Below are positions 992-61,994 of a stretch of 64,000 bases of DNA, one piece after another. How positions within the stretch are numbered: position 1 is the first letter of the stretch; the number at the start of each line of letters is the position of its first letter. The notes beneath the pieces were generated by a model, which was given only the letters and a program-made list of their open reading frames with translations, was not told the origin of the DNA and did no database searches. This DNA comes from Patescibacteria group bacterium (GTDB lineage: Bacteria > Patescibacteriota > Patescibacteriia > PEXW01), in assembly GCA_041665345.1 (NCBI GenBank), contig JBAYJA010000005.1, forward strand, positions 2,913-66,912. Reading direction: 5' to 3'. A program made the position numbers and the translations under genes.

Positions 992-1009
992 TTCCAAGGT
1001 TCGAGTTTC

Positions 1010-1453
1010 TTATGCCTCGATTGGGTTTGGCGGTGATCCTTCACTGGCAGCTCCTTCTGCGTCTACAATCGGTTCATCTTTCACAAGTACACCATCGTGG
1101 ATCGTGTACACCCCATGCACATTTCTCCCTTCTACAGAGAACCAGACGAGGACGTCGTACGGCACATCAAGTTGCATACGCTCGGGTCCGTACATGTCCA
1201 CGCGCAGACAGTCAGGCAGGAGTTGCAGGTTTGTAACCAAACCGGCGTAGATGCCGCGACGTGTGTCGAGGAATCTTGCCAGGCAAAGGCCATTCCCATT
1301 CGGTGCACCAAAGGTTGGTGACACAGTAAGTCTGAGGGATTCCAGTCTTCTTTGCAGGATGTGGCCAAATGGCTTGCGGTTCACGTCCGCCATTGCATTC
1401 TGCACTTCGACTAGGAAATCAGCAAAAGTCAGCATTTCGCTCATGATTATCAC
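1010..1453 (-). CDS. hypothetical protein (147 aa)
   Basis: Long ORF with a terminator downstream; no motif recognised. Confidence 0.4.
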   Translation of the reverse strand: MIIMSEMLTFADFLVEVQNAMADVNRKPFGHILQRRLESLRLTVSPTFGAPNGNGLCLARFLDTRRGIYAGLVTNLQLLPDCLRVDMYGPERMQLDVPYDVLVWFSVEGRNVHGVYTIHDGVLVKDEPIVDAEGAASEGSPPNPIEA

Positions 1454-1560: not shown

Positions 1561-2004
1561 CTACCAGCCGAACTGTACGAAGAATATGCCAATGGGTATG
1601 GCGAGCCAGTACCCAAGCGGCAAACCCAAAAACCAGCGTGCGTGCCACCAAATATGCTGTGGCCGAAATTTGGTAATGCCAAAATGCGGGTTGCAAACAA
1701 ACCACAGAAAGTCTTCCAGGGTGAAGTGGAGAATGCAAAAACCCAGCACCAGTGCTTCGCGCTCCCAAGTCCACGGTTGGGCAAAGAGGATTGGCAAGTG
1801 TGCCAGTGCCAGCACCGTCGCGGTCATGGTGAGGTGGTATCCAGTCAGCGGCACTCCTAAAATACTCTGCACCAACTTCCCGTCAAACTTTTTAGTTGGC
1901 AGCTTTGCCGCCCACCCATCCTTGCCTTCAATCTGAATTTCCATCAGCGCATGTGCTGTGGCTGTGCAAAGCAGGAGAATAAGGAAAGCAGGAATGGAAA
2001 TCAT
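1561..2004 (-). CDS. hypothetical polytopic membrane protein (147 aa)
   Basis: Four or five hydrophobic segments. Preferred over the overlapping plus-strand ORFs 1460..1936 and 1477..1860, which have no features and an odd composition. Confidence 0.35.
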   Translation of the reverse strand: MISIPAFLILLLCTATAHALMEIQIEGKDGWAAKLPTKKFDGKLVQSILGVPLTGYHLTMTATVLALAHLPILFAQPWTWEREALVLGFCILHFTLEDFLWFVCNPHFGITKFRPQHIWWHARWFLGLPLGYWLAIPIGIFFVQFGW

Positions 2005-3798: not shown

Positions 3799-4221
3799 AT
3801 GGAAACCCAGAAAAAACTTTACCGATCAAAAACCAACCGCGTCATTGCTGGTGTGGCCGGTGGTTTAGGCGAGTATTTTGCCATTGATCCGGTCATTTTT
3901 CGGGTGCTGTTCGTCGCGCTCGCTTTTGCGGGTGGGTCTGGGCTGCTCCTTTACATCATTGGCATGCTCGTCATCCCCGAAGCGTCAGGCGTGACAACCG
4001 CGCAGTCAGAGGTGGTTATTGATAAGGAAGGAAAAGTGCAGAATACCGCCCAAGGCTGGTTGGTTGATCGCCGGAACCTCATTGGCTTGCTCATTGTGGT
4101 GGTGGGCATCATTGCCCTTTTGAATCAGGTAGCCCCCCTACACTGGTTCCGCTGGGACTTCTTCTGGCCAATTGTCATCATCATCGTGGGTGCATACCTC
4201 ATCATGAAAAACCGACGCTAA
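3799..4221 (+). CDS. PspC-domain membrane protein
   Basis: LYRSKTNRVIAGVAGGLGEYFAIDPVIFRVLFV is the PspC domain signature. Start placed at the internal ATG 3799; the ORF opens at 3751. Confidence 0.7.
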   Translation: METQKKLYRSKTNRVIAGVAGGLGEYFAIDPVIFRVLFVALAFAGGSGLLLYIIGMLVIPEASGVTTAQSEVVIDKEGKVQNTAQGWLVDRRNLIGLLIVVVGIIALLNQVAPLHWFRWDFFWPIVIIIVGAYLIMKNRR

Positions 4222-4222
4222 T

Positions 4223-5242
4223 ATGGATATTACGAATCAAGAGTCAAAAACACAGAACCCGGAACCAGAAAAGCAGGAGCCAAAGGTGGAACCCAAACCG
4301 AATCCAGAACCGCAAGTTGTGAAAGAAGTGCACCACCATCACTACAAGCGCGGGTTCAATCCTGGTAGCATGTTCTTCGGTCTACTTATCATTGTCGTGG
4401 GTGTGGCTTTTTTGGGCCGGAACGCGGGCTGGTTTGACTTCTCCTTTCAAGTAGATTGGAACATCATTTGGCCAGTCATACTCATTTTGGTTGGTCTGTC
4501 TTTCTTCAACCGGCGGGGTTGGGTGTCTGGGGTTATCGGCGGCATCATCACAGTTATTGTGGTTGGCTTAGTGGCGTGGGCAGTGTTTGGCGGAACCGCG
4601 CACCGGGAAACCACTACAGATACCGTGTCCATTCTGAAACAAGAGAAAGTTGCGGAGAGCGTGGTCAATATCAAGACCGGCGCAGGCAAACTCACCATCA
4701 ACGGTAGTATCCCAGCCTCAAGTACGTCACTCATTACTGGTACGCACACGACGAACAATCTGAGTCTCACCAAGGAGAGCTCATTAAGTGAAACTACACA
4801 GCACACAACCTTGAGCACGAAGTCCAGCGGGAGCTGGGTCTTCAACCATCGTAATGAACTTAGCTTGCAGCTGGCGAAGGATATGCCAACCAGTCTCATT
4901 CTGGATACGGGCGCCATGGACATGACCTTGGATCTTTCTGAGATTCAAGCGAAACTAGTGGATGTGGACACGGGCGCTTCTACGCTCAATCTTACCTTAG
5001 GTGATCTGCTGGAAACTTCTGAAGTGCGGGTGGATGCCGGAGCGAGCACCATCAACCTGACGTTACCCAAAACCCTGGGGGCAAAATTGTCTTTGGACTC
5101 AGGTGCAACGTCGAAGAGCCTCGCAGACTTTACCAAAATTGATGAGCATACCTACGAGTCTACCAACTACAGCTCAACTAGTAAGAAGGTAAACCTGGAT
5201 TTTGACCTGGGGGCAGCCACCCTGGATATTCGGTGGAAGTAA
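4223..5242 (+). CDS. membrane protein with a LiaF/DUF4097-like C-terminal beta-rich domain (PspC partner)
   Basis: His-rich N-terminus, two transmembrane segments, then a Thr/Ser/Leu-rich repetitive C-terminal domain of the kind seen in LiaF-like proteins. Adjacent to the PspC gene. Confidence 0.55.
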   Translation: MDITNQESKTQNPEPEKQEPKVEPKPNPEPQVVKEVHHHHYKRGFNPGSMFFGLLIIVVGVAFLGRNAGWFDFSFQVDWNIIWPVILILVGLSFFNRRGWVSGVIGGIITVIVVGLVAWAVFGGTAHRETTTDTVSILKQEKVAESVVNIKTGAGKLTINGSIPASSTSLITGTHTTNNLSLTKESSLSETTQHTTLSTKSSGSWVFNHRNELSLQLAKDMPTSLILDTGAMDMTLDLSEIQAKLVDVDTGASTLNLTLGDLLETSEVRVDAGASTINLTLPKTLGAKLSLDSGATSKSLADFTKIDEHTYESTNYSSTSKKVNLDFDLGAATLDIRWK

Positions 5243-7461: not shown

Positions 7462-7812
7462 TTATCGACGTAGATCTCGCATATCTTCAGCGACTGAAGT
7501 TTGGTTGGGGAAAGTGATGTCGAATGGAGTGCCGCTACTGTAGAGTGTCCCAGCAAAGCAATCTTTTGCATTTCGCCCAACTTCCCCGAGGACGTACCAT
7601 TCACCATTTTCGACGCGTAGGGCGCCTCCAATTTTTAGGTGCCCCTCCGGAAGCAACAATGCAGCTTTGATAACGATTTCTAGTTGCTCTGTACGATCGC
7701 CACCGGTATGAGCCGTACATACGATAGGCTTCCCATCGGCAAAGGCGTTAAGCATTTCCTTTACCCCGGGTGTTATTAACAGGTTGAGTGTGTCTCGATC
7801 GTGGATCTGCAT
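7462..7812 (-). CDS. hypothetical protein (116 aa from internal ATG)
   Basis: ORF 7462..7911; start placed at MQIHDRD (ATG 7812) because a TTGACA-18-TACTAT promoter and a terminator lie in the region above it. Confidence 0.4.
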   Translation of the reverse strand: MQIHDRDTLNLLITPGVKEMLNAFADGKPIVCTAHTGGDRTEQLEIVIKAALLLPEGHLKIGGALRVENGEWYVLGEVGRNAKDCFAGTLYSSGTPFDITFPNQTSVAEDMRDLRR

Positions 7813-8250: not shown

Positions 8251-11200
8251 ATGCTATTTCGTTTTTATCGAAGCCCGGCGCTTTCGGCGATGCGCAGCAC
8301 CGCACTGCTCCAGAAGGCGCAGGCTGAAGTGTCAGCGGATATTACGGCGGTTGAGACCGAGTGGGTCTATACCGTGGCATCAACCCGTACCCTAAAAACG
8401 CAGGAGCGATTGATCCTGGAATGGATCCTGCGGGAAACTTTCCAACCCGAACGTTTTGGTTTGCAGAGCAGCATTGTCACAAATGGCCACATTGAAGTTG
8501 GGCCGCGGCTGGCAATTGTTTCGCCTTTTTCCACCAACGCCGTGGCCATTTGCCACGCGTGTGGGTTGCAGACCATAACCCGGGTGGAGCGTTCTCGACG
8601 TTTCGTTTTCAAACGCGCCGACGGCACAAGCCTTTCTTCAGCAGAGGAAGCGCGCCTGCTCCCCCACCTGTACGATCGGATGACGGAGGAGCGGTACGGA
8701 CAACCACCCAAAAGTTTTGACCAGGAGGTGAGGCGTCAGCCACTTCCGTTGATCCCTATTCTCGCTGAGGGGAAAGCAGCTTTGATACGTGCAAGCAAGG
8801 AGATGGGTTTAGGTTTAGGTGATCAGCTCGTTACCTACGCAGTCGACCACAGCTTGCATACCTTGCAACGGGATTTGAGTGACGTTGAGGTTTTTAAGTT
8901 TGGCCAGCTGAATTCCAACCACTGTCGGCATTTGGTTTTTTGTGCCGAGTACACCATTGACGGTGTGATTATGCCGCATCCTCCCATGGAGATGGTACGT
9001 TTGAGTTTGGCGGGTAATCTTGGAGATATAATCAGCGCGTTGCGGGATAATGCCGGGGCAATGGCGCCACATTTAGTGCGTGCTTTTGTGCCAAGCAATC
9101 CGGGCCAGCCTTCGGCCTACCACCTGGAGGAGGTGGAGTACTGCATTATTTTGAAAGTGGAAACCCATAACCACCCAACGGGTGTTTCGCCCTACGCTGG
9201 CGCAGCCACTGGGACGGGCGGAGAAATTCGTGACCGGCAAGCAAATGGTCGGGGTGGGTTACCACAAACTGGTTTGGCGTGCTACTACGTTGGTAACCTT
9301 TTCTTGCCTGGGTACCGCCAACCTTGGGAAATGGAAATTGGCCAACGTTCACCTTCCATGGCGCCAGCGTTGGAAATTCTCATTCAAGCCTCAAACGGTG
9401 CCTCAGACTATGGCAACTGTTTTGGACAGCCTCTCATTCTCGGGGCGACTCGATCCTTCGAGTTTCTCTTGGATGAGGAGTGGCTGGGGTATGTGAAGCC
9501 AGTAATGGTTGCAGGGGGTGTGGGTTTGATGCGTTCGGACCATGTGCAGAAGCAAAAGCCAGAACCCGGCTTCCTGGTTGTGCAAATTGGCGGCGATGCT
9601 TACTGCATTGGTCTTGGGGGTGCGGGCCGGTCAAGTGTGGACAGCGGTTCGGCTGCTGACTTGCACCTTGATTTTGCTTCGGTGCAACGCGCGAATCCAG
9701 AAATGGAGCAGCGCGTTGATCGGGTCATCCGTGCCTGTGTTGCCTTAGGCCCGCGTAACCCAATTGTGACCATTCAAGATTTGGGTGCGGGCGGAGATTC
9801 AGTTGCGGTGCCGGAAATTGTGCACCCAGTAGGTGCGCGGATCCAGCTTCGGGCTATTCCTTCTGGTGATCCAACTATGTCCGTGCTTGAGCTCTGGTGC
9901 AACGAGAGCCAAGAACGGTTAGTGTTGATTCTTCGACCAGAAGACCTTGAGCTTTTCATCGCGATCTGCAATCGGGAGCGATGTCCCTTTGCGGTTATTG
10001 GTGTGTGTACCGGGGATGGGAAGATTGTCGTGGAAGATGAGGATGGGACGACGCCAGTTAATCTAGGTTTAGATTTTCTTTTGTCCGATTTGCCCCAGAA
10101 GCAAATTACGTCTGAGCGTGTTGCTCGGGCATTCCAGCCTTTGGTGCTACCCGACGGTCTGACGGTTCGCGCTGCGTTGGAGCAAGTTTTTGGGTTTGTG
10201 GACGTTGGCTCCAAAGCCTTTTTGACGCGGAAGGTTGACCGTTCTGTGGGTGGCTGCGTGGCGCAGCAGCAGACCGTAGGTGCGTTGCAGCTCACTCTTG
10301 CTGATCTTGCAGTAACGGCAGATAGTTTTGATAGCCTCACGGGTACTGCTCAAGCCATTGGTGAGCAGCCAATCAAAGGCATTTTGGACAGCGCAGCGGG
10401 TGCCCGCATGTCTGTGGCCGAAGCCTTAACGAATCTCATGTTCGCAAAGGTTACCGGCCTGGACAAGGTTAATTTCTCTGCCACCTGGCAGTGGCCGGCG
10501 GGTCATCCGGGTGAGGATGCACGGCTGTACGATGCCGTACACGCGGTAACCCTGGGTCTGCAAAAGGATCTCGGGGTACGCATCTTCGTGGGAAAAGACT
10601 CACTCTCCATGGCGACACGTGCGGTGCGTGAAGGTGTGGAAACTGTGGTCAAGGCGCCGGGGACTGTTCAGTTTGTGGCGGTTGCACCTATGGCAGATGT
10701 GACTCGGAAAGTCACCCCAGCATTGCAATATCCTGGAATCAGCCAGCTGTTGTTCCTGGATTTGTCCGGTGGGCAGCAGCGGCTGGGCGCTTCGACCTTG
10801 GCGCGGGCGTATAACCAATTGGGTGATATGACCCCGGATCTTGACGATCCAGACTTGCTTCGCCGGGGCTTCCTGGCGGTGCAAGAGCTGCTACGGCTGG
10901 GTTTGATTCACGCCGGGCACGATCGTTCGGACGGTGGACTCATTACCACGCTGCTAGAAATGGCTTTTGCTGGAAACTGTGGGCTTCGCGTGCACTTCAC
11001 GCACCCAAAATTTGGCACCAATCCATTTTCCCTCCTCTTCAATGAAGAGTTGGGCGTCGTGATGGAGTACCAGCCGTCAAGTTGGCCAATGATTGAAAAA
11101 GTTTTGGCCAGCTACGGTTTGCTGGATCAGTGCCAGGACATTGGGCGAACACTGGTGGCCAAAGAGATTACCGTGGTCGGTCCAGATGGCATTATCCTCG

Positions 11201-14009: not shown

Positions 14010-14109
14010 ATTGAGGGTTTGGGTGTGGCGGTGAGTATAGAGGGAAGGTAGGGGTGAAGAGGCGGCATAGGTAACGACCTGCCATTTTTTGTGAGGTATA
14101 CTTAGGCAT

Positions 14110-15063
14110 ATGCAAACCATTGCCGTGCTTATGGGCGGACCTTCAACAGAGCATGAAGTGTCTCTGGCCTCAGGTGAGAATGTATGTGCCAATCTAGATC
14201 GAAAAAAGTACCAAGTGCTTCCAGTGCGTATTTCCAAAAAAGGTTTGTGGACATTTGGAAATGCAGCGCGCCACTACCCATTACTCGCAGGCATTGCTGA
14301 GTTGCAGCGGAGGAAAATCGCCGTTGTCTTCATCGCACTGCATGGCGTTTTTGGTGAAGATGGAAAGTTGCAGGCGCTATTGGAAACAGCAAACATTCGG
14401 TACACGGGCTCTGGACCCGCAGCCTCAGCGTTGGCAATGGATAAGAAGTTAAGCGGTTTGCTTTTCCAGGCAGCTGGTTTGCGGGTACCAGCCTTCACAC
14501 TTGTTCGCCAGGGGGAGAAAGGAAGACTGTCAAAATTCCCGGTGATTCTCAAGCCCCGATTTGGCGGTTCCAGTGTGGGTATTACGATTGCAAAAAATCC
14601 ACAAGCGTATACCCATGGATTACAAAACGCCTGGAGATATGAGCCGGAGGTTGTTGTGCAGAAGTATATTTCTGGCGTTGAGTTAACCTGCGGGGTTATT
14701 GAATCAGTCAGTGGCAAACCCCAAGCACTGTTGCCCACGTTGATTCGGCCCGTGACTGCACATTTTTTTGGCTACAAGGCAAAGTACACTCCGGGTATGA
14801 CGGAAGAAATTACCCCGGCGCCACTGCCCAATGGAGTGTTACGAAAAATCCAAGCGCAGGCTTTGCTGGCACATACGACGTTAGGCTGCCGTGGCTTTTC
14901 ACGAACCGATTTCATTATCCGGGGACAAACTATGTACGTGTTAGAAACCAATAGTATCCCCGGGTTAACCCAGGAGAGCTTGCTGCCCAAAGCGGCCCGG
15001 GCGAGCGGTTTACCTTTCGCACAATTGCTCGACCGGATTATTCGCGCTGGGGTGAGGCGGTAG
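14110..15063 (+). CDS. ddl: D-alanine--D-alanine ligase
   Basis: IAVLMGGPSTEHEVSLASG at the N-terminus and an ATP-grasp C-terminal region (TPGMTEE...ETNSIPG). Confidence 0.85.
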   Translation: MQTIAVLMGGPSTEHEVSLASGENVCANLDRKKYQVLPVRISKKGLWTFGNAARHYPLLAGIAELQRRKIAVVFIALHGVFGEDGKLQALLETANIRYTGSGPAASALAMDKKLSGLLFQAAGLRVPAFTLVRQGEKGRLSKFPVILKPRFGGSSVGITIAKNPQAYTHGLQNAWRYEPEVVVQKYISGVELTCGVIESVSGKPQALLPTLIRPVTAHFFGYKAKYTPGMTEEITPAPLPNGVLRKIQAQALLAHTTLGCRGFSRTDFIIRGQTMYVLETNSIPGLTQESLLPKAARASGLPFAQLLDRIIRAGVRR

Positions 15064-32788: not shown

Positions 32789-33532
32789 TTAAGTTGCTAG
32801 CAATGCGAGTGCCTGCTGAACGTACGTTTTTGCTTTACGAAGATCCAAATGGTCATTCGCGTCACGGAGCCTTCCCTGCGCGTCAATGCTGCAATCCGCA
32901 AAAGTTCTAAACAACTTCTTGAGCGTGCTGAGATTATTTCCCTCTAATCCACCGGCGACCCCCATCCCATAATTGCCTAAGGCTTTTTCGGTAAACTTCC
33001 AGGCAAGTTCGGGGTCAATCGCTTTCCCCTCTCCTCCACTAAGGTCAAAAAGTATATCAGTGGCTATCCCTTCGTACTTCTGTGTCTCATCTGCACACGC
33101 ATCAATATCCCTATCGAATTCCTGCAGCGCATCGCGCCCAATTTGGAGCACCAGCCTTGCCTTCGGGTACACTTTTCGAAACCTCTGCAGTACCCGTGAG
33201 TCTGGCCAGGCGATATTCAGCTGCAGCCCGTCGCAGTCTTTCCCTGCCAGCTCATACGCGTAGGCCATTTGGTGAAAAAGTCCAATGCTGTCGCTTGTGT
33301 AGTAGTGAAGAAGGTTCAGAATACCTTTTCTTTTTGGAAAAATCTTTTCAATTTCCAATCGGGATGGTGTTTGATTTGGGAAAAGGTCTGGCTCACCAGC
33401 CAGGGTTTTGTTTGATGCAAGCACACCAAGCATCAAGTCATGGCTACATACTTCAGGCAATAGTCGAGCCAAGGTCAAAGCCTGGTGCCTTGATGTAATG
33501 CCTGTTACACCAATGTACGGTCTATTATTCAT
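32789..33532 (-). CDS. TIM-barrel protein, phosphoribosylanthranilate-isomerase-like
   Basis: IGVTGITS near the N-terminus and GVAGGLEGNNL near the C-terminus resemble PRAI. Start moved to MNNRPY (33532); the ORF's first 26 codons are a translation of the 22-bp palindrome. Confidence 0.4.
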   Translation of the reverse strand: MNNRPYIGVTGITSRHQALTLARLLPEVCSHDLMLGVLASNKTLAGEPDLFPNQTPSRLEIEKIFPKRKGILNLLHYYTSDSIGLFHQMAYAYELAGKDCDGLQLNIAWPDSRVLQRFRKVYPKARLVLQIGRDALQEFDRDIDACADETQKYEGIATDILFDLSGGEGKAIDPELAWKFTEKALGNYGMGVAGGLEGNNLSTLKKLFRTFADCSIDAQGRLRDANDHLDLRKAKTYVQQALALLAT

Positions 33533-33591
33533 GTAAAACTCCTTTGTTGGTTTCTTTTCTTTCACCCTAAAGGTGATATCAGAAAAAAGCA

Positions 33592-33612
33592 ATTGTTCCA
33601 CGTGGAACAATC
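33592..33612. promoter_or_regulatory. palindrome AATTGTTCCACGTGGAACAAT (copy 1), about 60 nt upstream of CDS 32789..33532
   Basis: Exact copy of the palindromes at 34167 and 34442. Confidence 0.55.
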
Positions 33613-33733
33613 AAATTTAAATCATTCACGTGTATTAGCATGTACGATCTTTTTTCTCAATCGGGGACAAGCCAATAAGACCACCATTCTCGATTAGGCA
33701 GTTATTAGTGCTGCATTAAAATCTCTGAATCTT

Positions 33734-33869
33734 GGGGTCCCCGCGAACGTGGCGCGCAACCCCGCTACGGGGTGAGCACGCGTTTGTGGGGTAAAGCGAG
33801 GCTTCGCGCGGAGTCCGGAGTGGAGTCGTAGCAACGGCTACACGCAGGGCGGAGCGCGAAACGAGTAGC
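33734..33869 (-). repeat. tRNA-trailer element copy T5 (downstream of tRNA-Ala GGC, separated by a hairpin-rich insertion)
   Basis: Minus strand: gctactcgtttcgcgctccgccctgcgtgtagccgttgctacg...cgcgaagcctcgctttaccccacaaacgcgtgctc...gcgcgccacgttcgcggggacccc; same family as T1-T4. Confidence 0.6.
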
Positions 33870-34060
33870 TGCCCTTCGACTCCTCGTCTGACTCGTCGCT
33901 CAGGGCGCTCGACTCGAAAAATGGCTTGCCGGCCGAAGCCCGAGGAGGATCATTAGTCCTCCTACGCTCAGAAGCTTCGGCCTACGCCGACCGAAGTCGG
34001 CTCTGGCCGACGTAGGTCGGAGGACAGCCTTCGCCCTCGATAATGCTCGAGGGCGAAGGC
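33870..34060 (-). repeat. about 190-nt hairpin-rich insertion between tRNA-Ala(GGC) and trailer T5
   Basis: Contains at least four strong stem-loops, for example ccttcgccctcgagcattatcgagggcgaagg, cgtaggaggactaatgatcctcctcg and gacgagtcagacgaggagtcg. Confidence 0.45.
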
Positions 34061-34136
34061 TGGTGGACCTCAGGAGACTCGAACTCCTTACCTCTTCCAT
34101 GCCATGGAAGCGCTCTACCAGATGAGCTAGAGGCCC
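34061..34136 (-). tRNA. tRNA-Ala (anticodon GGC), CCA encoded
   Basis: Reverse complement gggcctctagctcatctggtagagcgcttccatggcatggaagaggtaaggagttcgagtctcctgaggtccacca folds as a cloverleaf; G3:U70 Ala identity pair; anticodon loop aTGGCat. Confidence 0.85.
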
Positions 34137-34166: not shown

Positions 34167-34188
34167 AATTGTTCCACGTGGAACAATT
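34167..34188. promoter_or_regulatory. palindrome AATTGTTCCACGTGGAACAATT (copy 2), about 30 nt upstream of tRNA-Ala(GGC)
   Basis: Perfect 22-bp inverted repeat with a CACGTG core. Confidence 0.55.
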
Positions 34189-34201
34189 GTAACTAATCCC
34201 T

Positions 34202-34338
34202 GGATCCCGCGAACGTGGCGCGCACCCTGAGCACAGCCGAAGGGGAGCACGCGTTCGTGGGGAAAGGGGCAACCTTGTGGAGGGTGTAGTGGGGTGGACT
34301 TGCTCTGCCACACGAAACCCGACGCAAGGATTGACCCG
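34202..34338 (-). repeat. tRNA-trailer element copy T6 (after tRNA-Ala CGC), with a diverged 5' half
   Basis: 3' half ccccacgaacgcgtgctc...gcgcgccacgttcgcgggatcc matches the family; the 5' half is diverged. Confidence 0.5.
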
Positions 34339-34412
34339 TGGTGGACCTGGGGAGAATCGAACTCCCGTCTCAGCAATGCGAATGCCGTGTTCTACCACTG
34401 AACCACAGGCCC
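34339..34412 (-). tRNA. tRNA-Ala (anticodon CGC), CCA encoded
   Basis: Reverse complement gggcctgtggttcagtggtagaacacggcattcgcattgctgagacgggagttcgattctccccaggtccacca; G3:U70; anticodon loop tTCGCat. Confidence 0.8.
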
Positions 34413-34441: not shown

Positions 34442-34463
34442 AATTGTTCCACGTGGAACAATT
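34442..34463. promoter_or_regulatory. palindrome AATTGTTCCACGTGGAACAATT (copy 3), about 30 nt upstream of tRNA-Ala(CGC)
   Basis: Exact 22-bp palindrome. Confidence 0.55.
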
Positions 34464-34570: not shown

Positions 34571-34721
34571 CTTCGGGGGTCCCCACAGATGTGGCGCGCA
34601 GTCTCCCGAGCGTAGTCGAGGGGGACGAGCACGCGTCTGTGGGGTAAAGCGAGGCTTCGTGCGACGGGCGGAGCGGATTCGGTAGCAACCGGATACGCGC
34701 AGCTCTGAGCACGAAACGAGC
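34571..34721 (-). repeat. tRNA-trailer element copy T4 (after tRNA-Arg CCU)
   Basis: Minus strand: gctcgtttcgtgctcagagctgcgcgtatccggttgctaccgaatccg...cacgaagcctcgctttaccccacagacgcgtgctc...gcgcgccacatctgtggggacccccgaag. Confidence 0.65.
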
Positions 34722-34796
34722 TGGTGCCCCCGGAGGGAATCGAACCCCCATCTCTCCCTTAGGACGGGATTGCTCAATCCATTGAGCTACAGGGGC
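34722..34796 (-). tRNA. tRNA-Arg (anticodon CCU), CCA encoded
   Basis: Reverse complement gcccctgtagctcaatggattgagcaatcccgtcctaagggagagatgggggttcgattccctccgggggcacca; cloverleaf with anticodon loop gtCCTaa. Confidence 0.75.
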
Positions 34797-59212: not shown

Positions 59213-59455
59213 GTGCGGCAAGGGTTTGGATGCTCGTTAGGGTTTAGGGTATGGAAGGGGGGAGATTTTCTTGGAGGTTGCACCAATCTTTCGTCACGAA
59301 GGCAAGCTTCTCCTGGTAAGCATTACCCCTCCGCACCTCCCCTTAGTAAAGGGGAGGACGGGTTTTGTGGTGAAAGCTCAAGACTCTTCCTATTCGTAAT
59401 TCGTACTTTCGTAGCATCTATTCGTATTTCGTAACTGTATTCGTATATTTGACGA
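59213..59455 (+). repeat. modular intergenic repeat, copy E5 (oriented toward pilT)
   Basis: gcaagggtttggatgctcgttagggtttagggtatggaagg...cccctccgcacctccccttagtaaaggggagg...ctattcgtaattcgtactttcgtagcatctattcgtatttcgtaactgtattcgtat, abutting the TTGACG -35 box. Confidence 0.6.
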
Positions 59456-59477
59456 AAGTGAAAAAACATGCTAGAAT
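59449..59477 (+). promoter_or_regulatory. sigma70-type promoter of pilT
   Basis: TTGACG - 17 nt - TAGAAT. Confidence 0.5.
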
Positions 59478-59663
59478 ACATTTAGAAATAAAGAACAAAT
59501 ATGAAAAAACTTTCACCAGCCTTCCCCTCGGGGCATATTAGCTTGGTCATGCTAGGACAGACCATGTACTACGAAAAGGCATCAATGTCACTGGGCCACC
59601 GCATGGCCAAGCGCATTTTTGGTGCATTGAAAAAGAAACCCGCCCAGCGGTAACGCGTCCTTT

Positions 59664-60710
59664 ATGATTAAAATTGACGACCTGTTTCGCATCGCGGTTG
59701 ACCGCCGGGCCTCCGACGTCCATATTGTTTCCGGCAAACCACCAATCCTCCGCATTGATGGGAATTTAGTTGAGGTTGAAGGTATTCCACCCTTGGCGCC
59801 AAAAGACACCCAGGCGTTGATTTTCTCCATCATGAATGACAAGCAGAAGCAGTTGTTCATTGGTGACCGGGAATTGGATATGTCCTACGAGATTCCCGGT
59901 GGGTATCGCTTCCGTGTGAATTGTCACTGGGAGCGTAACAACGCCGGTTTAGTTGCGCGTATCATTTCCCAGCAAATTCCAGCCATGGAAGATTTGGCCA
60001 TGCCGCAGGTAGTGTACGACCTGATCAAGCAGAAGCAGGGGCTCATTTTGGTCACTGGCCCTACGGGTTGTGGGAAGTCCACTTCCTTGGCTGCCATGAT
60101 TGACTACATTAATAATGACCGTGCGGCGCACATCATCACCCTGGAAGATCCCATTGAATTCATCTACGAATCCAAGAAGTCCATTATCAAGCAGCGCCAA
60201 CTTGGAACGGACATTCTCTCCTTTGGCCAGGCACTGAAGCATGTGTTGCGCCAAGACCCCAACGTGATTTTGGTGGGGGAAATGCGCGATTTGGAAACCA
60301 TTTCTGCCACCATTACCTTGGCGGAGACTGGACACTTGGTTCTGGCTACCCTGCACACCTTCAACGCCGCGCAAACCGTGGATCGCATCATCGACGTGTT
60401 CCCACCCTACCAGCAAGACCAAGTCCGCATTCAGCTCTCCCTCTTCTTAAAGGGAATTATCTCCCAGCAGCTCTTGCCCCGGATGAATGGCGGACGTATT
60501 TCGTCCCGGGAAATTCTCATTAACACGCCAGCAATTGCAAACTTGATTCGGGAGAACAAGGTGGCGCAAATTAAAACCGTCATTCAAACGTCGGCAGAAG
60601 ATGGCATGATCACCATGGACCAAGATTTGAAGCGTTTGTACGACGCGGGGGAAATTGCGGAAGACATTGCCCGGGCGTACATGCTGAATCCAGAAACACT
60701 GAAAGGGTAA
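59664..60710 (+). CDS. pilT: type IV pilus retraction ATPase PilT
   Basis: Walker A GPTGCGKST, Asp box, Walker B, and His box of the PilT/PilU family; 348 aa. Confidence 0.85.
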   Translation: MIKIDDLFRIAVDRRASDVHIVSGKPPILRIDGNLVEVEGIPPLAPKDTQALIFSIMNDKQKQLFIGDRELDMSYEIPGGYRFRVNCHWERNNAGLVARIISQQIPAMEDLAMPQVVYDLIKQKQGLILVTGPTGCGKSTSLAAMIDYINNDRAAHIITLEDPIEFIYESKKSIIKQRQLGTDILSFGQALKHVLRQDPNVILVGEMRDLETISATITLAETGHLVLATLHTFNAAQTVDRIIDVFPPYQQDQVRIQLSLFLKGIISQQLLPRMNGGRISSREILINTPAIANLIRENKVAQIKTVIQTSAEDGMITMDQDLKRLYDAGEIAEDIARAYMLNPETLKG

Positions 60711-60800
60711 GCAATATAGTCTACGAAGTGCAATAAACGAGCCCCGCAGCCAGCGGGGTTTCTTGCATATCAGCGCGTTCACTGCTACGTTGGAAGCCGA

Positions 60801-60876
60801 GCGCCCGTAGCTCAACGGATAGAGTACATGGCTTCGAACCATGGGGTTGGGGGTTCGATTCCCTCCGGGCGCACCA
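60801..60876 (+). tRNA. tRNA-Arg (anticodon UCG), CCA encoded
   Basis: gcgcccgtagctcaacggatagagtacatggcttcgaaccatggggttgggggttcgattccctccgggcgcacca; anticodon loop cTTCGaa. Confidence 0.8.
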
Positions 60877-61026
60877 GCTCGTTTCGTGCTCCGCCCTGCG
60901 TGTAGCCGTTGCTACGGCTCCACTCCGGACTCCGCACGAAGCCTCGCTTTGCCCCACAAACCCGTGCTCCCCTTCGATTCGCTTCGCTCACTCAGGGTCC
61001 GCTTCGTGTTTGTGGGGACCCCGAAG
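60877..61026 (+). repeat. tRNA-trailer element copy T1
   Basis: gctcgtttcgtgctccgccctgcgtgtagccgttgctacggctcc...cacgaagcctcgctttgccccacaaac...gtttgtggggaccccgaag; starts at the first nucleotide after CCA. Confidence 0.65.
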
Positions 61027-61033
61027 AAAGCTC

Positions 61034-61110
61034 GGGCAACTAGCTCAGTTGGTTAGAGCGTCTCGTTTACACCGAGAAGGTCGTAGGTTCGACTCCTACG
61101 TTGCCCACCA
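61034..61110 (+). tRNA. tRNA-Val (anticodon UAC), CCA encoded
   Basis: gggcaactagctcagttggttagagcgtctcgtttacaccgagaaggtcgtaggttcgactcctacgttgcccacca; anticodon loop tTTACac. Confidence 0.85.
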
Positions 61111-61247
61111 GCTCGTTTCGCGCTCAGAGCTGCGCGTATCCGGTTGCTACCGAATCCGCTCCGCCCGTCGCGCGAAGCCTCGCTTTACCCCAGAAACGCG
61201 TGCTCGTCCTGATGCAGGACTGCGCGCCACATTTCTGGGGACCCCGG
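61111..61247 (+). repeat. tRNA-trailer element copy T2
   Basis: gctcgtttcgcgctcagagctgcgcgtatccggttgctaccgaatccg...cgcgaagcctcgctttaccccagaaacgcgtgctcgtcctgatgcaggactgcgcgccacatttctggggaccccgg. Confidence 0.65.
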
Positions 61248-61257
61248 AAAAAATTAT

Positions 61258-61333
61258 GGGCCCTTAGCTCATTTGGTAGAGCGCCGCGTTTGCAACGCGG
61301 AGGTGACCGGTTCGAGCCCGGTAGGGTCCACCA
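61258..61333 (+). tRNA. tRNA-Ala (anticodon UGC), CCA encoded
   Basis: gggcccttagctcatttggtagagcgccgcgtttgcaacgcggaggtgaccggttcgagcccggtagggtccacca; G3:U70; anticodon loop tTTGCaa. Confidence 0.85.
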
Positions 61334-61470
61334 GCTCGTTTCGCGCTCAGAGCTGCGCGTAGACGTTGCTACGTCTCCGTTCCGCCCTTCGCGCGAAGCC
61401 TCGCTTTGCCCCACGAACGCGTGCTCGTCCTGCGGCAGGACTACGCGCCACATTCGTGGGGACCCCGGAG
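61334..61470 (+). repeat. tRNA-trailer element copy T3
   Basis: gctcgtttcgcgctcagagctgcgcgtagacgttgctacgtctcc...cgcgaagcctcgctttgccccacgaacgcgtgctcgtcctgcggcaggactacgcgccacattcgtggggaccccggag. Confidence 0.65.
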
Positions 61471-61595
61471 ATGCTGAGCATATTTGAGTAATATTACTCC
61501 GCACGAATTTCGTCCCACTGCGTTTTTCACAGCGGCAGCTTTTTTCAGATACCAGTGCATTGCCATGACGAACACAGAATTGCTACTCTATTATT

Positions 61596-61994
61596 ATGAC
61601 TAACGAGATAACCGCTTACAATAATTTACAAGCAAAGAAGGAGAAAAGCATTTGCGATGCCCTACGTCGGGTGATTGATGCCTCTTTGCCAAAGGCTGAG
61701 AGTAAAGTGTGGCACGGTGGGCCAGTGTGGTTTTTGGCTGGGAATCCAATTGTTGGTTACTCGCTGCGGAAGCAGGGTGTGCAGCTTCTGTTCTGGAGCG
61801 GTATGTCGTTTGCTGAAACAGACCTCCTGCCCGTTGGGAACGTCAAAAAGTTCAAGGCTGCTGGTGTTATCTACACTGACCGTAAGGAGCTGAAGCATGC
61901 ACTCATCAAACGTTGGCTGCGGAAAGCAAAAACCATCCAGTGGGATTATAAGAATATTATCAAGCGACGAGGGAAACTGGTGCGGCTGAAGTAG
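61596..61994 (+). CDS. DUF1801 (YdhG-like) domain protein
   Basis: LRRVIDASLPKAESKVWHGGPVWFLAGNPIVGYSL matches the DUF1801 pattern. Confidence 0.55.
   Translation: MTNEITAYNNLQAKKEKSICDALRRVIDASLPKAESKVWHGGPVWFLAGNPIVGYSLRKQGVQLLFWSGMSFAETDLLPVGNVKKFKAAGVIYTDRKELKHALIKRWLRKAKTIQWDYKNIIKRRGKLVRLK

Follow-up and report, generated by a model that had tools for sequence, protein, structure and literature searches.

The DNA examined here is a 64-kb stretch (64,000 nucleotides, nt; called the window below) of contig JBAYJA010000005.1 from a Patescibacteria group bacterium. It carries six tRNA genes in two clusters, all with an encoded CCA and all found concurrently by ARAGORN and Rfam, and behind each of the six lies a copy (T1 to T6) of a GC-rich element that is predicted to fold into two hairpin domains (Table 1). 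Four copies are full length and abut the CCA, one abuts it but is degenerate, and one is full length and lies 194 nt downstream. An earlier reading of the letters alone (the sequence-only reading) had described a structured element from the first base after the CCA, and the sequences of T1 to T4 agree, each beginning directly after the CCA with GCTCGTTTCG(Y)GCTC. The motif CGAAGCCTCGCTTTRCCCCA has five matches, with none expected in shuffles. The same reading attached the element to every tRNA gene. This is borne out in the window insofar as all six tRNAs have a copy, with T5 degenerate and T6 at a distance, and it fails beyond the window, where many tRNAs in related metagenome-assembled genomes (MAGs) have no element. 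A covariance model search with filters off found no further copies in the 64 kb; the other model matches are 11- to 16-bit echoes on the antisense strand of the same six copies.

The copies differ in preservation. T5 scores 74.8 bits against the family model R1 (described below), compared with 111.7 to 134.3 bits for the window's other five; in its 5' half, both domain A and the linker have diverged, but CCCCACGAACGCGTGCTC...GCGCGCCACGTTCGCGGG, the core of domain B, is retained. T1 has a variant 3' half, CCGCTTCGTGTTTGTGGGG, and its purine-rich tail GAAGAAAGCTC reaches position 61033, the last base before the next tRNA. In T2, domain A occupies 61115-61178 and domain B 61188-61240, with linker CCUCGCUUUA and tail ACCCCG. 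The start of a DUF1801 gene lies 129 nt downstream of T3, and the 194-nt insert in front of T6 opens with a perfect 14-bp hairpin at +1 after the CCA.

At least eight Patescibacteria MAGs contain the family, as do metagenomes from groundwater. A scan with the central motif, in which no tRNA was demanded and each species was represented by one genome, matched the Patescibacteria MAGs Candidatus Kerfeldbacteria CAIPSZ01, JBBTRU01, JBBTRK01, JBBTVB01, JBAZBR01, and JBGSPR01. It also matched two MAGs labelled "uncultured Gammaproteobacteria" (CAZBMC01 and CAZAMC01) and gave a handful of chance matches. Because CAZBMC01 is syntenic with the window, the Gammaproteobacteria label looks wrong; the content of both MAGs resembles that of Patescibacteria. 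A two-gap pattern scan of metagenome contigs added 24 groundwater loci (Hainich H51, Ga0172379, Ga0334722). In ENA, the window corresponds to contig ERZ27249449:k141_391398. We aligned 43 distinct full-length copies (alignment A3) and built the covariance model R1 from them, which found 56 copies at 50 bits or more in the window and 45 loci (373 kb; loci are referred to by L numbers). Chance-pattern loci from unrelated genomes (L005, L006, L010, L012, L016, L021) had no R1 match, and L024 and L025 had weak ones, at 21 and 18 bits. A phage origin was rejected: the lone motif match on a viral contig scored 9.7 bits in the model, a chance match with no tRNA nearby. The element is 125 to 160 nt long, typically ~135 nt, with a GC content of ~65-70% compared with ~51% for the genome. 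Full-text literature searches turned up no published description of it, and the nearest literature concerns theta ribozymes, a palindrome ~10 bp downstream of genes for tRNAs in Methanopyrus kandleri, and group I introns in Patescibacteria tRNAs. The elements form an apparently undescribed family of GC-rich structured elements in a groundwater Patescibacteria clade.

Table 1. The tRNA genes and element copies of the window, with an adjoining insert and a second repeat of related loci (bit scores from model R1 unless a different model is named).
Feature	Position	Strand	Evidence
tRNA-Arg(UCG), CCA encoded	60801..60876	+	ARAGORN; Rfam tRNA 69.3 bits
Copy T1, variant domain B, start +1 after CCA	60877..61023	+	111.7 bits; fold z = -4.47
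tRNA-Val(UAC), CCA encoded	61034..61110	+	ARAGORN, Rfam
Copy T2	61111..61246	+	134.3 bits; minimum free energy -62.5 kcal/mol, z = -4.52
tRNA-Ala(UGC), CCA encoded	61258..61333	+	ARAGORN, Rfam
Copy T3, final unit of the + strand cluster	61334..61467	+	131.4 bits
tRNA-Arg(CCU), CCA encoded	34722..34796	-	ARAGORN, Rfam
Copy T4, start +1 after CCA	34575..34721	-	128.8 bits; z = -4.73
tRNA-Ala(CGC), CCA encoded	34339..34412	-	ARAGORN, Rfam
Copy T5, degenerate, abuts tRNA-Ala(CGC)	34200..34336	-	74.8 bits; alignment
tRNA-Ala(GGC), CCA encoded	34061..34136	-	ARAGORN, Rfam
GC-rich insert of 194 nt with several hairpins, between tRNA-Ala(GGC) and T6	33867..34060	-	
Copy T6, full length, begins ACTCG, no preceding CCA	33733..33866	-	123.7 bits
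Module 2 (related loci)	L044 82-240; L032 5400-5510; L026 ~1771-1900 (-); L049 ~9261-9372 (-); L019 5655-5727 (-); L039 ~1000-1088 (-)		

The fold predicted from the 43 copies (RNAalifold) consists of two imperfect hairpin domains and an invariant linker. On the tRNA's strand, the element opens with GCUC, four invariant bases that do not pair, and 42 of the 43 copies have G at position +1. Domain A, a long hairpin with imperfect pairing, is closed by G5UUUCGYGC/GCRCGAAGC71; inside it lie two further helices, and its apical hairpin is variable. The linker between the domains, CCUCGCUUU(R), is single-stranded and runs from C72 (C72UCGCUUU(R)). Domain B has a stem of 12 layers (CCCC/GGGG, an A opposite U or C, and six freely covarying pairs), a conserved irregular core in which C92GUGCUC lies opposite U143-N144-CGCGCCA151 (columns 145-151 being CGCGCCA), and a variable apical hairpin at its tip. 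The 3' tail reads A-CCCC-N and is followed by a purine-rich flank (GAAGA...). The tRNA-sense strand carries an invariant U6·G70 wobble (in 42 of the 43 copies), and the apical loops are not conserved across the family.

This fold, with its covariation, is strongly supported. Among the 43 copies, 95.8% of cells are paired, compared with 78.5% in shuffled alignments and 37-49% when the partners are slid; cells changed on both sides number 222 (60.5 in shuffles); and covariation scores 0.455, compared with 0.139 for shuffles (0 of 500 reach the observed score) and at most 0.095 with slid partners. Compensatory changes occur at 19 of the 32 pairs. Covariation thus lies above both the shuffle and the slide controls, which is the generic criterion for conserved structure. 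Mutual information with average product correction, computed over all column pairs, recovered only the nested helix pairs and the base of the domain B apical hairpin; it gave no pseudoknot signal. Because the junction nucleotides never vary, tertiary contacts through them would give no covariation. The three helices that had been proposed from the window copies are all present in the sequence: the variable triplets CAA/TTG, GAA/TTC, CGA/TCG, and CAG/CTG of helix 1, the Y:R pair of helix 2 (TTCGYGC/GCRCGAA), and AGCCG/CGGCT versus AGACG/CGTCT around TTGCTA in helix 3. The compensatory changes noted there are real, and the signal became far stronger once the 43 non-identical copies from other genomes had been added. 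The UUGCUA loop, described as conserved, is so in this genome and a close relative only and not across the family.

The element is tied to tRNA 3' ends. In 35 of the 56 copies, the start lies 0 to 3 nt past the CCA of a tRNA called by ARAGORN, with the strand shared in every case, and the tRNAs concerned represent at least 20 anticodon species; this supports the linkage to tRNAs that had been proposed from the window. A CCA still precedes at least 14 of the other 21 copies, generally on a recognizable remnant of a tRNA 3' end. In both L044 and L032, the element is preceded by an exact 20-nt copy of the segment from the tRNA's T-loop to the CCA, and a separate small repeat sits between this duplicate and the intact tRNA. 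In L022, the decayed 3' part of a tRNA-Ala(UGC) of the window type is attached to the element, and a different tRNA-Ala(UGC) gene lies upstream. That CCA remnants are kept before the element suggests that it is the original trailer, which stays with the old tRNA end when DNA inserts upstream. In L007, the element begins 23 nt past the stop codon of a 398-amino-acid open reading frame (ORF), between convergent genes, and the transfer-messenger RNA (tmRNA) gene of L018 has no element after it. None of the contrary findings named by the sequence-only reading turned up among those examined.

Position within tRNA units is also telling. In tight tRNA clusters of other MAGs, the element (E) follows the last tRNA only, as in Ile-Val-Phe-Pro-E, Phe-Pro-E, Met-Met-Leu-E, and Cys-Gly-E. 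In the window, T3, T4, T5, and T6 terminate their units, and T1 and T2 are spacers that sit 10 to 11 nt upstream of the next co-oriented tRNA. This gap leaves no room for a promoter, so transcription must pass through both. Judged by gene arrangement, sense transcription is certain for T1 and T2 only; for the other copies, we infer it. All tRNAs in the examined loci encode their CCA, so a cut exactly after the CCA would be useful.

The copies are old and have exchanged sequence. The highest pairwise identity between any two is 0.89, which argues against a recent transposition burst. The closest relative of a copy mostly sits behind another tRNA, in many cases within the same genome or sample, and only once behind the orthologous tRNA. 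Between the window and L022 (CAZBMC010000040.1), pilT is 90% identical, and the Arg-UCG trailers are 61% identical, no better than paralogous copies. The Arg-Val-Ala tRNA cluster with its elements is inverted relative to the flanking pilT and DUF1801 genes (L022, 2343-6611; window, 59447-61993); the L022 region also holds ~1.5 kb of additional sequence. T1 is a mosaic, with a domain A like those of T6 and L022:5102 and a domain B like that of L009. Subfamilies are common to several genomes and to different tRNAs, and some copies are partial, degenerate, or tandem repeats of domain B alone (T5, L008:132, L019:5728, L045:8410). On sequence comparison, the pattern is that of a repeat family recombining between loci (concerted evolution or turnover) and not of a recent transposition burst. 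That diverged copies keep their helices intact (96% of pairs) argues for either selection on each copy or continual conversion from selected copies, which is unlike a recent burst of selfish, decaying copies.

Other small repeats occur at tRNA flanks in these genomes. One of them, which we call module 2, is found in related MAGs on the downstream side of tRNAs, in some cases separating the tRNA from the element (Table 1). It begins with a hairpin at +1 after the CCA, followed by GGAAUCGAAC-GGGYGCGAGC...GCRCCCC-GGCC...GGC-GAUUCCC. Its outer stem is complementary to the T-arm, and in L044 and L032 it is followed by the exact ~20-nt duplicate of the tRNA 3' end. Module 2 has no Rfam match, and by its layout it looks like a miniature integrative element that would use the tRNA 3' end as its attachment (att) site. 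The 3' end of the insert in front of T6 (GTCGAAGGGCAGC) is similar to the module 2 start in L044. A hairpin of ~26 nt, GGGUGCGACCCAUCGGRAGCACCCC, recurs in L035 (~14100-14137, -), L013 (2598-2625), L002 (~950-978, -), and L032 (~7750-7778, -); one copy sits where a D-loop would be in a tRNA-Val(GAC)-like sequence not called by ARAGORN, and the hairpin may be a mini-insertion or an intron-like element. L017 (7583-7927, -) carries a tRNA gene whose anticodon loop is interrupted by a group I intron (Rfam Intron_gpI, 52.9 bits), in line with the group I introns published for Patescibacteria tRNAs; behind the gene lie copies of the element that are degenerate and partly tandem.

A Pfam scan of the 10 ORFs flanking the two clusters gave PilT, DUF1801, sigma-70, bactofilin, a class II aminoacyl-tRNA synthetase, and VKOR; these are housekeeping genes. 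Two ORFs, 61101-61487 (+, 128 amino acids) and 61124-61504 (-, 126 amino acids), span T2, tRNA-Ala, and T3, and gene callers placed an 87-amino-acid ORF over the corresponding region of L052. All of these are almost certainly spurious, caused by the GC-rich repeats. L052 (Ga0376277_0008246, 4047-4987) encodes an identical PilT and is identical to the window through tRNA-Arg, T1, and tRNA-Val as far as the T-arm; past that point come AT-rich sequence of another organism and a different tRNA-Ala(UGC), with no elements. It is either an assembly chimera or a product of recombination at the conserved T-arm and is uninformative on the element. A perfect 18-bp palindrome, TTGTTCCACGTGGAACAA, occurs three times (33593-33610, 34169-34186, and 34444-34461). 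On the minus strand, tRNA-Ala(GGC) and tRNA-Ala(CGC) each have one copy ~30-45 nt upstream, and the remaining copy overlaps the point where ORF 32789-33610 is predicted to start; from this placement, it looks like a shared operator or promoter element of these units.

Several known classes were tested against the element. Rfam 15, whose families include twister, pistol, hatchet, hammerhead, HEARO, and tRNA-like RNAs, gave no match over the element at gathering thresholds in the window and 17 loci, where the only hits were tRNA, tmRNA, and one group I intron. At E<=10, the region 60700-61600 gave only tRNA and noise (microRNA and plastid families), hepatitis delta virus (HDV)-type models had no match there, and seven further loci gave nothing over the element. 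This accords with the earlier reading, which did not recognize the element as any known ribozyme or riboswitch class. An HDV-like or theta fold was rejected, as a partner of at least 5 bp for nucleotides 1 to 7 (G·U allowed) is absent in 21 of the 43 copies and inconsistent in the rest; nucleotides 5 to 14 pair instead with 63 to 71, with covariation. Threading the HDV fold by hand found nothing conserved. An intrinsic terminator was rejected because a terminator scan puts no site at the 3' end of any copy and because T1 and T2 require read-through. A classical miniature inverted-repeat transposable element (MITE) was rejected because the ends (GCTCGTTTCG, GGGGACCCCN) form no terminal inverted repeats and there is no target-site duplication, by inspection and with no dedicated search; the element is flanked by the tRNA CCA on one side and by unrelated sequence on the other, and there are no near-identical copies (top identity 0.89). 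An att-type integrative element was rejected because no copy of the tRNA 3' end lies beyond the element. Neither ARAGORN nor the Rfam tRNA model recognized a tRNA-like part in it.

Some known systems are nonetheless instructive. In plant mitochondrial t-elements, MALAT1-mascRNA, the tRNA-microRNA units of murine herpesvirus 68, and tRNA-small nucleolar RNA genes, a tRNA or tRNA-like stem is co-transcribed with a structured RNA, and tRNA-processing enzymes separate the two. Those systems differ in being eukaryotic, organellar, or viral. A processed tRNA 3' trailer with its own function is known from Escherichia coli, where 3'ETS-leuZ acts as a small RNA sponge; it is short and confined to a single locus, whereas the element here is a structured family common to many tRNAs. 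Multi-copy, hairpin-forming repeats without ORFs, some of them co-transcribed and processed, include REP/BIME, the Neisseria Correia and Rickettsia palindromic elements, and IS200/IS605-derived MITEs. Like these, the element has subfamilies, mosaic copies, and presence/absence polymorphism; unlike them, it has no terminal inverted repeats or target duplication, and its copies are old (at most 89% identical) with 96% of pairs kept. We know of no such repeat family that is tied to the nucleotide after a tRNA CCA or fixed in orientation to tRNAs. Closest in position are the theta ribozymes of gut Caudoviricetes, which are minimal HDV-like ribozymes adjoining tRNAs and for which a role in 3'-trailer processing has been postulated (PMC10879173). 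Both are structured elements at tRNA genes, placed to define the tRNA 3' end. However, theta ribozymes form an HDV double pseudoknot, whereas the element here has two long hairpins over ~135 nt and no P1 from +1. Only 4.5% of theta-associated tRNAs encode CCA (PMC10879173), whereas every tRNA seen here does, and theta hosts are phages, whereas the element resides on Patescibacteria chromosomes. Domain B, with its 12-layer stem and A-CCCC, may superficially resemble an acceptor/T-arm minihelix with a discriminator and CC.

The interpretation that we tentatively favour, as a possibility still short of an even chance, is that tRNA and element are transcribed together and that the element serves as a 3'-trailer RNA module, defining or protecting the CCA end, with recombination between loci driving its evolution. 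It is suggested by the precision of the junction, the constant orientation, the placement at tRNA operon ends, and the selection on each copy, and the invariant U6·G70 wobble of the tRNA-sense strand and the concerted evolution of the copies also speak for it. The element would be transcribed as the 3' trailer of the pre-tRNA and would act in cis. Its two stable hairpins would block 3'-to-5' exonucleases and keep neighbouring tRNAs folding separately, and the invariant junction of CCA and GCUC would mark a single cut by a protein endonuclease. The candidate nuclease is RNase Z cutting after the CCA, or another RNase of these reduced genomes; RNase Z of Thermotoga cuts after CCA. The cut would yield a tRNA that keeps its encoded CCA and, as a stable by-product, an RNA of ~140 nt; within a genome, the copies would stay functional and alike because tRNA loci recombine or undergo gene conversion with one another. 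We infer the junction cut, its enzyme, and the benefit to the cell from the arrangement of the element.

Several observations weigh against a trailer module. Among the 69 tRNAs in loci that had been selected for containing a copy, 15 lack the element, and in JBBTVB01 the tRNA-Arg(UCG) downstream of pilT has an ordinary hairpin and U-run terminator instead. Copies behind tRNA remnants, behind an ORF (L007), or with no nearby tRNA (L020, L042, L014) are equally well preserved (100-132 bits), which is unexpected if their sole job is to mature the adjoining tRNA. A 135-nt, two-domain structure with an invariant linker exceeds the needs of a nuclease barrier. The strand is a further difficulty. At variable pairs, A·C mismatches (50 cells) outnumber G·U (25 cells), the two conserved C·A mismatches of domain B are G·U on the complementary strand, and the two strands have comparable z-scores (-3.8 to -4.3 for antisense, -2.7 to -4.7 for sense). 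The antisense minimum free energy is lower in 42 of 43 copies, by ~10 kcal/mol, and antisense shuffles are lower equally. With A·C in excess of G·U and both strands folding alike, there is no RNA-typical signature for the sense strand. The earlier proposal of a functional structured RNA holds for the conserved structure, but sense RNA, antisense RNA, or single-stranded DNA each may be the folded molecule.

A selfish alternative appears doubtful but deserves serious attention: a non-autonomous mobile element, or a repeat spread by recombination, would target the tRNA 3' end (stem plus NCCA) as folded single-stranded DNA or by retro-mobilization. In that case, a transposase, recombinase, or reverse transcriptase with its gene elsewhere would read the hairpins as recognition structures, and the element would have no host role. 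Multiple copies, sharp boundaries, and ~65-70% GC in a ~51% GC genome would fit such an element, as would subfamilies that cross genomes and tRNAs, the mosaic T1, tandem or partial domain B units, degenerate copies, and variable presence at a syntenic tRNA. So would the orthologous Arg-UCG copies that share only 61% identity despite 90% for pilT, the inversion of the cluster between the window and L022, and the lack of a G·U excess over A·C in strands that fold equally well. The element's own 3' end (12-bp stem plus ACCCC) resembles the supposed target, an acceptor-type stem plus NCCA, and module 2 at tRNA 3' flanks duplicates the last ~20 nt of the tRNA in an att-like manner. Mobility is harder to reconcile with a maximum identity of 89%, which gives no sign of recent transposition, and with the 96% of pairs kept in diverged copies, which points to constant gene conversion or to selection at each locus. 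The element is not surrounded by terminal inverted repeats or a target-site duplication, none of the 10 genes adjoining the two clusters (only those were checked) is a transposase, integrase, or reverse transcriptase, and a CCA target of 3 nt alone cannot account for confinement to tRNA ends. Orientation tracks the tRNA and not replication, as both orientations lie within a uniformly positive cumulative GC skew. The readings may overlap, and a recombination-spread repeat may also be co-opted for processing.

The remaining explanations give the RNA itself a larger or a simpler task. The element could itself be the product, an abundant tRNA-linked small RNA, trans-acting or protein-binding, with the upstream tRNA or tRNA-like stem and its CCA serving as promoter and 5'-processing handle. 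Copies that stay intact with only a tRNA 3' remnant or a hairpin plus NCCA upstream (L020, L042, L014:1602, L022:5102, L032:5689, L044) would fit this. The invariant single-stranded GCUCG-UUU and CCUCGCUUU before each hairpin resemble repeated protein-binding sites, and RNase P acting at the next tRNA in a cluster would set the element's 3' end. We regard this as unlikely, given that the apical loops are unconserved and offer no obvious target-pairing seed and that subfamilies have diverged within one genome, which would be unusual for a single trans-acting RNA. A new catalytic or enzyme-guiding RNA for tRNA 3' ends, either a ribozyme at the bond between CCA and G1 or a tRNA mimic directing RNase P or RNase Z, is a rather improbable proposal. 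Its narrower form, a new self-cleaving class that cuts at its own 5' end between CCA and G and frees the tRNA 3' end with no protein nuclease, is improbable. It draws on a 5' boundary exactly at the mature end of dozens of tRNAs (+1 being G in 42 of 43 copies), on invariant nucleotides that cluster, as in catalytic cores, in unpaired junctions and one irregular internal loop, on the reduced host genomes, and on the precedent of tRNA-adjacent ribozymes with a postulated part in trailer processing (PMC10879173). No known ribozyme family matches even at E<=10, though; nucleotides 1 to 7 have no conserved partner and hence no HDV-like P1; and the fold is two long rods with no covariation for a pseudoknot or compact core. 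A ribozyme would need no specific upstream sequence, yet the CCA or tRNA remnant is kept where the tRNA is gone, and self-cleavage would leave a 2',3'-cyclic phosphate on the CCA that needs removal. It is very unlikely that the element is a factor-independent terminator with no U-tract ("I-shaped") or a 3' stabilizer for tRNA and some mRNA units. Two very stable GC-rich hairpins placed after the last tRNA of clusters in several MAGs, and in L007 placed 23 nt after a stop codon between convergent genes, would suit that role, but T1 and T2 must be read through to the next tRNA, no U-run follows the element, and the same organisms use canonical hairpin and U-run terminators (L020, L045). The invariant linker and irregular core would be unnecessary for termination.

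For annotation, the tRNA-adjacent "intergenic" sequence in these MAGs should be labelled as a family, with no spurious ORFs such as 61101-61487 called over it. The wider interest lies in how bacteria that encode the CCA make exact tRNA 3' ends with minimal RNases, a process that is poorly understood; Patescibacteria themselves have seen little experimental work. About 20 covarying pairs at the bond between CCA and +1 of many tRNAs, in several lineages, provide a concrete handle on 3'-end formation. If the element is a parasite, it would be a rare one that recognizes the extreme tRNA 3' end, and together with module 2 it would mark tRNA flanks as active sites of small-element turnover. If instead it directs or catalyses the cut, that would be a new RNA function, and for the genome-reduced Patescibacteria a catalytic or enzyme-guiding RNA would mean that mature CCA ends are reached by a route encoded in cis.

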